This document shows, piece by piece, positions 42,001-45,000 of a DNA stretch of 64,000 nt. The DNA comes from a plasmid. The stretch lies in assembly GCF_988243305.1 (NCBI RefSeq), contig NZ_OZ547138.1; one strand, written 5' to 3'. Made by a program: the position numbers. Every line of letters begins with the position of its first letter. Position 1 is the stretch's first letter.

Positions 42001-45000
42001 GATTGAGCGCAGGATCCGGGTACACTTTCATCAAAGACTGAACGATATCCTCCCTGACGGTTTTGATTTCACCGGCCATTTTCACGAAGTCCAGAAAGGC
42101 ACTGTGACGGCGAAGGTGAGTGAAGCTGTGGCTTTCGGGGTCTGCTTTCAGGAAAAAGTAACCGGGAAACACGGCGTGTATATGTCGACGGTAACCACAG
42201 ACTTTATCCGTGCGGCGGACCTTTTTCAGTATCAGGGGTGTCCAGGGAAGGACGTGTTGTTCGGAAAGCCAGGAAAAGAGATGTTCGCGGTTTTTGCCGG
42301 CAGGGATGTACTGTGCCAGATACCAGTTGCGTTGATGTAATTCACTGATATTCAAAATCCGGAACGCTCCGCGAAAATCGATCCCCGCAGGGGGGCTTCG
42401 ATGTTGTTGTGAACGGCGAATACATAAAGCATGTGTCGGAAACAGCGGCTGACCCACGTTCAGCCTGGCCTGCAGTTCTGACAGGCACATGATTTACGCA
42501 CTCTTGTAAGCCTTGTGGACGGTTTCGAGGCGGGCGAAAACCGACAACTCCTGCAAACAGGATTAATGGCTGAAAAATATATTACATAAGGATGTATCTG
42601 TGGCAAGAGTGAAGATAAGCAGTTGAATAGATCGTTATATTTGATAAGTCAGCATATTATTCTGATTTGTGTGCGGTGTCTGGAGGATTAGATCGTTTAA
42701 AAATTTTATGCGATCTCTTCTACTAAAAATGATGAAAAACACAGCATAAAAGATCGTTTGTGAAATTGTTCATTTTTTTGACAAAGTTCAAAAAAACGAC
42801 GCTTTTTAGGGGGTTAAAGAGGGCAACTGTAACCCTGAGAAATCGTGTCGGCTTTTCAAAGCGGTGGAAAAGGGGTATATTGCGGATCGTTATGCAGTGG
42901 CTTTTGGGATCCTCGCGGTTCGGAAAGCCAGAAAACGGCAGAATGCGCCATAAGGCATTCAGGATGTATGGCAGAAACGACGGCAGTTTGCCGGGGCCGG
43001 AAGGCTGAAAAAAGTTTCAGAAGGCCATAAAGGAAAACCCCCACTATCTTTCCTCGAACTTTGGCGGGCTCGTGAAAGATAGTAGGGGCGTTCACAGAAT
43101 ACGGGATAAGTATATATGAAACCGTACCAGAGATTCAACCCTGTGCAGTGTATAAATACACGGCACAATCGCTCCGCCATAAGCGACAGCTTGTGGCAGG
43201 TCTGAAGAATACTTCATATAACGCAGTACACTGGAGTCAGTTAGCACCCGAAGAGCAGATCCGTTTCTGGGAAGACTATGAAGCGGGAAGGGCGACCACT
43301 TTCCTGGTTGAACCGGAAAGGAAGCGCACGAAGCGCCGTCGCGGTGAGCACTCCACCAAACCCAAATGCGAAAATCCGTCCTGGTATCGTCCGGAGCGCT
43401 ATAAGGCGCTGAGCGGGCAGCTCGGGCACGCCTACAACCGTCTGGTGAAAAAGGACCCGGTGACCGGCGAGCAGAGCCTGCGCATGCACATGTCTCTGCA
43501 TCCTTTTTACGTGCAGAAACGAACGTATGCTGGTCGCAAATATGCTTTCCGTCCGGAAAAACAACGCCTCCTCGATACCGTCTGGCCGGTTCTGGTCAGC
43601 TTCAGTGATGCGGTCACACATACCGTAGGCATGAGTGTTTCCCGTCTGGCCAGAGAAATCAGCCCGAAAGACAGCAAGGGGAAGGTTATTCCGGAACTGG
43701 AAGTGACGGTCTCCCGCCTTTCCCGTTTGCTGGCCGAACAGGTACGTTTTGGTGTGCTGGGTGTTTCAGAGGAAACCCTGTGGGACCGTGAAACCCGCCA
43801 GCGTCTGCCACGTTACGTCTGGATAACACCGGCAGGCTGGCAGATGCTGGGCGTCGACATGGTGAAACTTCACGAACAGCAGCAGAAGCGGTTGCGTGAA
43901 AGTGAAATCCGCCAGCAACTCATCCGGGAAGGCGTACTGCGTGAGGATGAAGATATCTCCGTACATGCGGCCAGAAAACGCTGGTATCTGCAGCGCAGTC
44001 AGGATGCACTGAAACACCGTCGTGCGAAAGCAGCAGCCAGTAAGCGCGCCAGACGCCTGAAGAAACTGCCTGCCGACCAGCAGATTCATGAGATGGCAGA
44101 GTATCTCAGGAAGCGTCTGCCGCCGGATGAAGCCTATTTTTGTTCCGATGACCATCTGAAGCGACTGGCCATCAGGGAGTTGCGTCAGCTTGAACTGACG
44201 CTGGCTGCCCCGCCACCGCACTAGACAGTACCATTCCCTCAGCACTGAATCATCGCCAGCCCCTCCGGGGCTTTCGGCGCTGGTTCCGCTCAGCCCAAAA
44301 TCCGCAGTAATCATCTTAAATCCCCTCAGAGGGGCATATCTGTCCATAAAACCACGCATCAGTCATCAGAACGTGGCCACGTTGTTTCAGTTATCCACAT
44401 AAATCCGCAAACAAAGAACTTTGAGAAGCTGCAAGCCTAAAACAGCAAACCTGCAATATAGTCTTAACCCCATTATTTAATCCCCTGCGTTGCTTCGCCG
44501 CAGGGAAAGTCTTTATCTCTGAAACCACTGTGAATAAATACAAAGAGGCCTTCGCTTGCAGCGGCCAAGGCCGCGCCGCTCAGAATCTAAAAGCACCTCC
44601 CACGCTGACGCGCGGGCCCCGGAACCTCACCGTTCTGAGACCACAGCAAAAAAAAATCAGGAATAAAAACACCACATAAATGCAGCACCGTGCCCACCCC
44701 TCATAACTGAAAAGCGAGGCCGCCCCCGCCCAAAGGGCGGGAACAACATCGCTTTTAATTATGAATGTTGTAACTACATTATCATCGCTGTCAGTCTTCT
44801 GGCTGGATGTTCTCAGTACACGCTCGTAAGCGGCCCTGACGGCCCGCTAACGCGGAGATACGCCCCGACTTCGGGTAAACCCTCGTCGGGACCACTCCGA
44901 CCGCGCACAGAAACTGTCTCATGGCTGAAAGCGGGTATGGCTTAGCAGGGCTGGGGATGGGTAAGGTGAAATCTATCAATCAGTACCGGCTGACGCCGGG

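Follow-up and report, generated by a model that had tools for sequence, protein, structure and literature searches.

Features of the rep locus

The 64-kb window (the whole stretch of plasmid DNA analysed here) contains a rep gene preceded by a short leader ORF and a structured leader RNA, with an antisense RNA gene on the opposite strand and a presumed replication origin downstream. The features are listed below with their strand and the evidence used to place them.

42853-42881, + strand: candidate promoter of the rep mRNA (Prep), TTTTCA-17 nt-TATATT; consensus scan
43033-43093, - strand: antisense RNA gene (Inc RNA / RNAI, 61 nt in IncK1 numbering), putatively transcribed; fold and identity to pCT
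43038-43088, + strand: stem-loop I (SLI) in the leader of the rep mRNA, to which the antisense RNA is directed; minimum free energy (MFE) folds, covariation and RF01087 helix columns
43109-43138, - strand: promoter-like site for the antisense RNA, TTGAAT-18 nt-TATACT; consensus scan
43116-43205, + strand: repY (= repB), rep leader peptide of 29 codons, ATG 43116 and TGA 43203-43205; ORF list
43142-43167, + strand: internal hairpin within repY, covering a spurious GTG at 43148; MFE fold
43174-43178, + strand: CCGCC, distal pseudoknot partner (contains CGCC, 43175-43178); complementarity to GGCGG 43063-43067
43174-43200, + strand: structure III hairpin (43174-43184 with 43189-43200), in which the CCGCC tract pairs with the region of the GUG start; MFE fold
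43193-44224, + strand: repZ (= repA), GTG start, 343 aa; PGAP CDS WP_000907882.1
44391-44450, + strand: start of the presumed oriV; DnaA box and repeats
48452-49054, - strand: fopA (yafB) homologue, FinO-domain RNA chaperone; annotated as ProQ/FinO family, adjoins yagA

The whole window is 100% identical to the E. coli O169:H41 plasmid NZ_CP024226.1. PLSDB lists this record as linear/unclosed, and the window leaves out about 22 kb of the plasmid. The backbone includes colicin Ib, yagA and fopA, as in pCol1B9, and the plasmid carries qnrS1 and colicin Ib as cargo.

The leader RNA

Consensus match and positional conservation point to Prep as the promoter of the rep mRNA. In 14/16 relatives its hexamers recur with the same spacing at 334-347 nt before the rep GTG, and among these relatives the conserved hexamers flank two unrelated spacer sequences.

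An earlier note on this DNA had read the leader as an I-complex antisense RNA and pseudoknot module that includes a hairpin with a UUGGCG loop. This hairpin is present as SLI, whose arms (43038-43052 and 43074-43088) form 15 stem pairs interrupted at 43042/43084 by a single C.A mismatch. The apical sequence reads CUCGAACUUUGGCGGGCUCGU, with UUGGCG at 43061-43066 and GGCGG at 43063-43067; in the sense-strand MFE structure, G-U pairs (CUU/GGG) close the loop further, leaving only UGGC unpaired. Over 13 I-complex replicons the stem is 95% paired, with compensatory double changes in five pairs, and TTGGCGG is unchanged in all 13. Two of the checks that the note had proposed, RNA folding and alignment, agree with it. 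Folding of the 181-nt leader gives -62.7 kcal/mol (z = -4.7; 0/200 shuffles as good) and that of the antisense strand -39.1 kcal/mol (z = -6.5), and the alignment of I-complex replicons, ColIb-P9 among them, shows conservation of both the hairpin and the CGCC tract. The internal repY hairpin is also recognisable across relatives (82% paired, compensatory changes in two pairs).

Comparison with Rfam gave the same picture. The PK-repZ family (RF01087; model length 150 nt, gathering score 44 bits) matches 43030-43180 on the + strand over model positions 1-150 of 150 with 173.9 bits (E = 1.1e-40), four times the threshold, with no other Rfam match at gathering level anywhere in the window. Two related families fall below their gathering thresholds: PK-repBA (RF01089) with 31.1 bits against 45 in this leader, and CopA (RF00042) with 29.2 bits against 60 (E = 0.019; 43030-43113, - strand).

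The antisense RNA and the replicon type

The RNAI region folds at -34.6 kcal/mol into a stem-loop whose top loop has 8 nt (CCGCCAAA), and a UUUU tail comes after the hairpin; an 8-nt loop agrees with the description of IncK1 RNAI (PMC10724649). In a 13-sequence alignment, the columns that hold the two hexamers of the promoter-like site vary little or not at all. The signals that characterise an I-complex antisense gene (a length of about 60-70 nt, its own promoter and a terminator-like end) are all found at the level of sequence.

To place the allele, we compared the antisense region with reference plasmids. All 61 nucleotides match the IncK1 reference pCT (NC_014477 / FN868832), and 43025-43115 is 100% identical in pCT and 30 other plasmids. 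The RNAI region differs from that of the IncK2 plasmid pTMSA1088 by four SNPs plus a single indel (43053, 43069, 43084, 43090-43091), the same four SNPs and one indel that have been reported to distinguish IncK1 from IncK2 RNAI (PMC10724649). Relative to ColIb-P9, about nine differences (three of them indels) occur within the 61 nt, clustered in the upper stem and loop flanks. MOB-suite types the NZ_CP024226.1 record as IncI-gamma/K1, MOBP and MPF_I, not IncI1/B/O. The antisense RNA allele is thus that of IncK1 and not that of IncI1/ColIb-P9, so the conventional gene names here would be RNAI, repB and repA.

These data bear on whether the replicon could instead be IncI1 in the strict sense (ColIb-P9/R64 type), with the Inc RNA specificity and the incompatibility of IncI1 plasmids. 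Much of the locus does resemble those plasmids: the architecture and mechanism are the same, UUGGCG sits in the loop, RepY is identical, ColIb-P9 shows no difference over the 100 nt that open with the repY ATG and extend through the rep start, nor at the repY-repZ junction with its hairpin III, CCGCC and GUG, RepZ is 94% identical, and the backbone carries colicin Ib, yagA and fopA, as that of pCol1B9 does. The differences lie in the antisense region itself, where pCT is identical and ColIb-P9 is not. The SLI upper stem and loop flanks read CCUCGAACUUUGGCGGGCUCGUG here versus CUUACGAACUUGGCGGAACGACG in ColIb-P9 / R64; in addition, the lower stem contains a C.A mismatch, a single nucleotide is added 3' of the stem, and the sequence upstream of 42923 is unrelated. 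Incompatibility specificity is therefore predicted to differ. Together with the MOB-suite type, this makes a strict IncI1 replicon quite improbable. We therefore favour an IncK1 replicon (RNAI/repB/repA), judged from the sequence, and this is the sole refinement of the earlier reading. The RNAI allele would set the incompatibility group, here IncK1, with a phenotype predicted from the literature.

The similarity to pCT extends beyond RNAI. Positions 42507-44716 are 97.8% identical, with 47 scattered nucleotide differences over 2.2 kb, and both plasmids have the same upstream GATCGTT repeats and promoter-like element. The cargo differs, with blaCTX-M-14 in pCT versus qnrS1 and colicin Ib here. 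We also considered an unusual mosaic of an IncK1 RNAI and an IncI1 repY-repZ and rejected it; the combination is not unusual, because pCT itself carries it.

The leader ORF, pseudoknot and structure III

The repY product is MKPYQRFNPVQCINTRHNRSAISDSLWQV, identical to the ColIb-P9 and R64 peptides. A 29-codon ORF is found in the same register in 13/13 relatives, and in all 13 the arrangement at its end is the one seen here, with the stop beginning 10 nt past the G of the rep GTG (43193), as expected of the leader ORF that had been proposed to terminate just after that codon. The CGCC tract, placed by the earlier note about 15 nt upstream of the GTG, ends in a C that lies 15 nt before the G, and the longer CCGCC is conserved in the 13 replicons.

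The predicted GGCGG/CCGCC duplex has an energy of -15.0 kcal/mol, and both partners are invariant in the 13 replicons. Structure III (-16.9 kcal/mol; 10/11 pairs invariant, 96% of cells paired) is the counterpart of the inhibitory structure known from ColIb-P9 (PMC4705826). The true pairing register gives 92% paired cells, compared with 34-54% in slid registers. Among the 13 I-complex replicons, neither the pseudoknot nor hairpin III shows covariation, 17/17 pairs being essentially invariant, so covariation support for the pseudoknot comes only from the IncL/M comparison; part of this invariance could reflect coding constraint, because RepY is encoded there as well. In IncL/M relatives, the two pseudoknot partners have changed in concert to GGCCGG/CCGGCC, with UUGGCCGG in the loop and CCGGCC 23 nt before the GTG, as is also seen in the RF01089 consensus.

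This pairing is also what separates the module from control of the IncFII R1 CopA-tap type, in which the antisense RNA blocks leader translation and rep is coupled directly, without an activating pseudoknot. The two systems have much in common: R1/R100 CopA-tap-repA combines a kissing-loop antisense RNA with leader-peptide coupling of repA, the RepA here belongs to the same NCBIfam family as IncFII initiators, the overall gene order is the same, and there is the weak CopA-like match on the minus strand. That match, however, reaches half of its gathering threshold whereas PK-repZ reaches 173.9 bits, and no activating pseudoknot has been described for R1. Here GGCGG/CCGCC does not vary in the I-complex and changes in concert in IncL/M, and pseudoknot dependence has been established experimentally for the ColIb-P9 repY-repZ junction, which is identical to this one (PMC4705826). 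We consider CopA-type control scarcely credible at this locus, and keep to the pseudoknot-dependent I-complex module. The IncB pMU720 and IncL/M pMU604 systems (RF01089) share with it the RNAI, the leader peptide, a GUG-initiated repA and the loop-to-distal pseudoknot; IncL/M differs in its 16-codon leaders (29 here) and its pseudoknot partners, and RF01089 stays at 31.1 bits in this leader.

RepZ and its start codon

RepZ (RepA) matches the NCBIfam model NF040977 (RepA_IncFII_LM) with 313.3 bits, where the cutoff is 70. The Pfam IncFII_repA match is weak (E = 1e-4), and we take the NCBIfam result as the decisive family assignment. The protein is identical to ColIb-P9 RepZ at 323/343 positions (94%) and to pCT RepA at 342/343, the sole change being the conservative V130I.

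An inactive relic in a plasmid that replicates from another replicon would be compatible with an unclosed record of which some 22 kb lies outside the window, but there is no supporting evidence for it: all elements are intact, RepA is one conservative residue away from that of the functional plasmid pCT, and the IncI-gamma/K1 replicon is the only one that MOB-suite reports in the 85.9-kb record. Such a relic is very hard to credit, and an intact IncK1 module is preferred.

The start of RepZ also follows the I-complex pattern. A mechanical ORF list opens the frame at GTG 43148, giving 358 aa, while the earlier note had argued for a 343-aa protein initiated at a downstream GTG and held the start at 43148 to be probably wrong. 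The RefSeq/PGAP annotation of this very gene bears this out with a start at 43193, and in all annotated relatives rep begins at the conserved GTG. In 8/13 relatives, an in-frame TAA lies 9-13 codons upstream of this GTG, with no alternative start codon between them. The ColIb-P9 mechanism likewise uses a GUG start masked by a hairpin and coupled to the leader peptide (PMC4705826). That Rep instead starts at 43148 (N-terminus MYKYTAQSLRHKRQL...), with the short ORF and hairpins being incidental, can practically be discounted: 43148 opens an uninterrupted frame both in this plasmid and in IncI1-type relatives, but besides the upstream TAA, the PGAP starts and the documented coupling, the NF040977 profile aligns only from residue 58 of the 343-aa protein onwards, and GTG 43148 lies within a stable hairpin inside repY. 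Judged on these sequence comparisons, the 43148 start is a mechanical ORF artefact.

Proposed mechanism

We conclude, with a probability of about 94%, that the locus is an intact replication-control module of an IncK1 (I-complex) plasmid, working as established for ColIb-P9 and pMU720. The evidence from this analysis consists of sequence, structure, conservation and family membership; transcription, ribosome-driven switching and the incompatibility phenotype would follow by analogy with the published systems. I-complex replicons have a common architecture (PMC10286972, PMC6361801), and the mechanism outlined here is taken from a review by one of the original authors (PMC4705826).

The rep mRNA, with a probable 5' end near 42888, would carry SLI, then the 29-codon repY/repB and then repZ/repA. 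Hairpin III would lock the repZ GUG (43193) and the CCGCC tract together, so that repZ could not be initiated directly. Hairpin III is expected to be melted by a ribosome that translates repY as far as its UGA (43203-43205) and terminates there, and the freed CCGCC (43174-43178) could then pair with GGCGG in the SLI loop (43063-43067), forming a long-range pseudoknot. The pseudoknot would keep the weak start site open, allowing the terminating ribosome to reinitiate at the GUG 10 nt upstream. From the opposite strand, the antisense RNA of about 61-70 nt would kiss the same UUGGCG loop through its own loop, first blocking the pseudoknot and then, as an extended duplex, blocking repY translation. 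RepZ synthesis, and with it the copy number, would therefore drop as the plasmid concentration rises.

The FopA chaperone, encoded 5 kb downstream, probably speeds this RNA pairing. Its product is identical at 197/200 positions to the syntenic ProQ/FinO-family protein next to yagA on the ST4/74 colicin Ib plasmid, which we take to be pCol1B9 FopA. FopA binds Inc RNA and makes Inc-repZ pairing about 7-fold faster in vitro (PMC7491321).

The control module is an already known textbook switch, with nothing new in the module itself: experiments have taken it apart since the 1990s, Rfam devotes a family to it, and it is found in about 1,900 PLSDB plasmids. The practical value lies in annotation and typing. 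The Rep start is fixed at GTG 43193 (343 aa), and a 29-codon leader ORF that had not been annotated is added, together with the antisense RNA gene. The RNAI allele places this qnrS1/colicin Ib plasmid of an ETEC O169:H41 strain in IncK1, an assignment that predicts which plasmids can coexist with it.

Sequences flanking the module

Downstream of repZ, a DnaA box (TTATCCACA, 44391-44399) is followed by two 13-nt TAAAnCnGCAAAC repeats (44400-44412 and 44438-44450), which begin 176 nt after the repZ stop. In I-complex plasmids, the iteron window lies at +176 to +301 downstream of rep, in the CIS-oriV region (PMC6361801). The consensus matches and their position suggest that 44391-44450 is the start of oriV.

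Upstream of the module lies a conserved array of Dam sites, (A/G)GATCGTT, with three copies exactly 61 bp apart (42630, 42691 and 42752) and a fourth copy 3 nt past the -10 hexamer of the putative rep promoter. A literature search for Dam/GATC control of I-complex rep or tra promoters found nothing relevant. It seems unlikely, if less so than the alternatives weighed above, that the array is an undescribed methylation- or SeqA-sensitive switch; if it were, transcription of rep or of the divergent traB-like gene would be coupled to the plasmid's state of replication or hemimethylation.

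Replicon identity

The module is an I-complex replicon (Rfam PK-repZ), specifically of the IncK1 subgroup. The full-length model of Rfam family RF01087 (PK-repZ, "pseudoknot of the regulatory region of the repZ gene") aligns to 43030-43180 (173.9 bits, E = 1e-40; gathering score 44), and is the sole gathering-level match across the whole 64-kb window. In the same scan, PK-repBA (31.1 vs 45) and CopA (29.2 vs 60) stayed below threshold. NZ_CP024226.1, a conjugative plasmid of 85.9 kb from E. coli O169:H41 strain 2014EL-1345-2 (typed IncI-gamma/K1, MOBP, MPF_I), matches the window at 100% identity; over the antisense-RNA region (43025-43115), so do the IncK1 reference plasmid pCT and 30 other PLSDB records. 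The control region can be recognised in ~1,870-1,890 PLSDB plasmids.

Across 42507-44716, pCT shows 97.8% identity; its RepA is identical at 342/343 residues and its RNAI region (43093 to 43033, minus strand) at 61/61 nucleotides. IncK1 and IncK2 RNAI have been reported to differ by 4 SNPs and 1 indel (Rozwandowicz et al., PMC10724649), exactly as here. Together, these comparisons place the replicon in IncK1. For the IncI1 plasmid ColIb-P9, RepZ is identical at 323/343 residues, and the 100 nt from the repY ATG into the first repZ codons (43116-43215; 378-477 of the ColIb-P9 sequence) are identical, yet the whole 1.4-kb alignment is only 90.6% identical and the adjacent stem-loop I differs at ~9 positions. 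As these Inc RNA differences fall in the loop flanks and upper stem, the replicon is not IncI1 in the strict sense. The earlier note's I-complex control module thus stands, supported by PK-repZ and conservation, while its IncI1 names (Inc/repY/repZ) give way to the IncB/K names RNAI/repB/repA. A second class of repY alleles, divergent from this one, is found in IncK2/Z replicons.

The inc-repY-repZ-CIS-oriV organisation is a shared backbone (PMC6361801, PMC10286972), and our finding is the correct reading of a well-known system. Its consequences are practical only: the start codon is corrected, repY and RNAI are added as two small genes missing from the annotation, and the replicon is assigned to IncK1.

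Control region and rep start codon

All the elements that the earlier note had read within 42990-43205 could be located; the positions below also include the promoter-like site of the antisense RNA:

43038-43052 and 43074-43088, plus strand: arms of the long hairpin (stem-loop I), with a single C.A mismatch (43042/43084)
43138-43109, minus strand: promoter-like site of the antisense RNA, TTGAAT-18-TATACT
43174-43178, plus strand: CCGCC tract, including CGCC (43175-43178)

The apical region of stem-loop I, CUCGAACUUUGGCGGGCUCGU, contains the UUGGCG loop motif (43061-43066). Translation of the 29-codon leader ORF (ATG 43116, TGA 43203-43205) gives MKPYQRFNPVQCINTRHNRSAISDSLWQV; the CGCC ends 15 nt before GTG 43193, and this GTG shares the frame of the long ORF to 44224, giving a RepZ of 343 aa. 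Folding energies are -62.7 kcal/mol for the 181-nt leader (z = -4.7) and -39.1 kcal/mol for the antisense strand (z = -6.5); both structures are far from chance.

A mechanical ORF list had started the long ORF at an earlier GTG, 43148 (358 aa), which the earlier note suspected to be wrong. RefSeq/PGAP starts WP_000907882.1 at 43193, and uses the equivalent GTG in every fetched orthologue. The upstream codon cannot be the conserved start: 8 of 13 relatives interrupt the frame with a TAA, 9-13 codons before the GTG, and have no other start codon in the interval. Translation of rep in ColIb-P9 and related plasmids starts at a GUG masked by secondary structure, and this weak signal is essential to the switch (Asano review, PMC4705826). 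The GTG at 43148 lies inside a hairpin within repY. This 10-bp hairpin (43142-43167, plus strand) spans the spurious start and is 82% paired across relatives, with two compensatory pairs.

Conservation and covariation

For the alignment we took the 200-nt control region from 13 distinct replicons of the I-complex, namely IncK1, IncI1, IncI-gamma/K1 variants, IncK2/Z and one unassigned cluster. The hairpin and CGCC tract are conserved throughout, and the GTG start and 29-codon leader ORF keep the same register in 13/13. In stem I, 95% paired overall, 5 of the 15 pairs show compensatory double changes; 92% of cells pair in the true register, and sliding the 3' partners by 1-3 columns lowers this to 34-54%. 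The six pseudoknot pairs (UGGCGG with CCGCCA) do not vary at all, and 10/11 pairs are invariant in hairpin III (43174-43184 with 43189-43200), where CCGCC is locked against the GUG. Neither element therefore shows covariation within these 13 replicons. Such invariance is consistent with strong constraint, although the tract also encodes RepY.

Covariation of the pseudoknot is found in two IncL/M replicons (pOXA-48 type), since both partners have changed together: the loop is UUGGCCGG and CCGGCC lies 23 nt before the GTG, the same pair as in the RF01089 (PK-repBA) consensus. Their leader has 16 codons, its end overlapping the GTG. The Klebsiella variicola plasmid pX39-8 (NZ_CP023985.1, 386-560), typed IncFII by MOB-suite, has a UUGGCGG loop, a CGCC tract 20 nt before its GTG rep start and a 17-codon leader ending 7 nt past that GTG. 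The same logic under an IncFII label indicates, at the sequence level, that pseudoknot-type control reaches beyond the I-complex and IncL/M labels.

Proposed switch mechanism

The mechanism has been shown for ColIb-P9 and the IncB plasmid pMU720, and we infer it here from identity. Hairpin III would conceal both the GUG and CCGCC until opened by a ribosome that translates repY as far as its stop, UGA 43203. The freed CCGCC would then pair with GGCGG of the stem-loop I loop (predicted duplex -15 kcal/mol), and this pseudoknot would keep the site accessible until the ribosome that has just terminated can reinitiate at the GUG, which lies 10 nt upstream. The antisense RNA, predicted by folding to form a hairpin with loop CCGCCAAA and a U tail, would kiss the same target loop and so compete with the pseudoknot; extended pairing would then block repY translation (as in PMC4705826).

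Surrounding elements

The promoter-like site, DnaA box and repeats, and FopA homologue fit the module; the list also gives an array of GATCGTT copies:

42853-42881, plus strand: promoter-like TTTTCA-17-TATATT (putative rep promoter)
44391-44399, plus strand: DnaA box, putative start of oriV
48452-49054, minus strand: FopA/YafB homologue, a FinO-domain RNA chaperone, adjoining yagA
42630, 42691 and 42752: three copies of (A)GATCGTT exactly 61 bp apart, Dam sites (region 42625-42758)
42885-42891: fourth GATCGTT copy, 3 nt downstream of the putative rep promoter's -10 hexamer

The promoter position is kept in 14/16 relatives, across two unrelated spacer sequences. Repeats of 13 nt begin 176 nt after the rep stop, a distance at which I-complex iterons have been reported (PMC6361801). 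The ST4/74 colicin Ib plasmid encodes a syntenic ProQ/FinO-family protein that we take to be pCol1B9 FopA, and the homologue here is identical to it at 197/200 residues; the gene order is the same in both plasmids (repA, yacAB toxin-antitoxin, 3'-5' exonuclease, ..., fopA, yagA). FopA binds Inc RNA and makes Inc-repZ pairing ~7-fold faster in vitro (PMC7491321), and its homologue here probably assists the RNAI/rep switch as an accessory factor.

The three spaced GATCGTT copies occupy AT-rich intergenic DNA (26-37% GC), bounded by the rep promoter and by a divergent NusG-like (traB-type) gene; a stretch of 262 bp holds 4 of the window's 11 copies. Those IncK1, IncK2 and K2/Z relatives whose fetched sequence extends that far upstream have kept the array. 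ColIb-P9 and R64 (both IncI1) have one copy, just upstream of their -35 hexamer. A Dam/SeqA-sensitive element is one possible reading of the array; we found no literature on it.

Other content of the window

1830-1982: Hok/Gef-family toxin gene (annotated)
2806-2901: DinQ-like type I toxin gene, dqlB (annotated)
51033-52913, plus strand, and 52931-53278, minus strand: colicin Ib and its immunity gene (RefSeq annotation)
~60430-61086, minus strand: qnrS1 (RefSeq annotation)

Despite the two annotated toxin genes, no antisense or regulatory RNA family other than PK-repZ reached its Rfam gathering score in the window. By RefSeq annotation, the cargo beyond the replicon is qnrS1 flanked by ISKpn19-family and IS26 transposases, together with colicin Ib and its immunity gene. 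The rest of the window comprises pil genes (type IVb thin pilus), the PilV shufflon adhesin and IncI1-type tra/trb genes.
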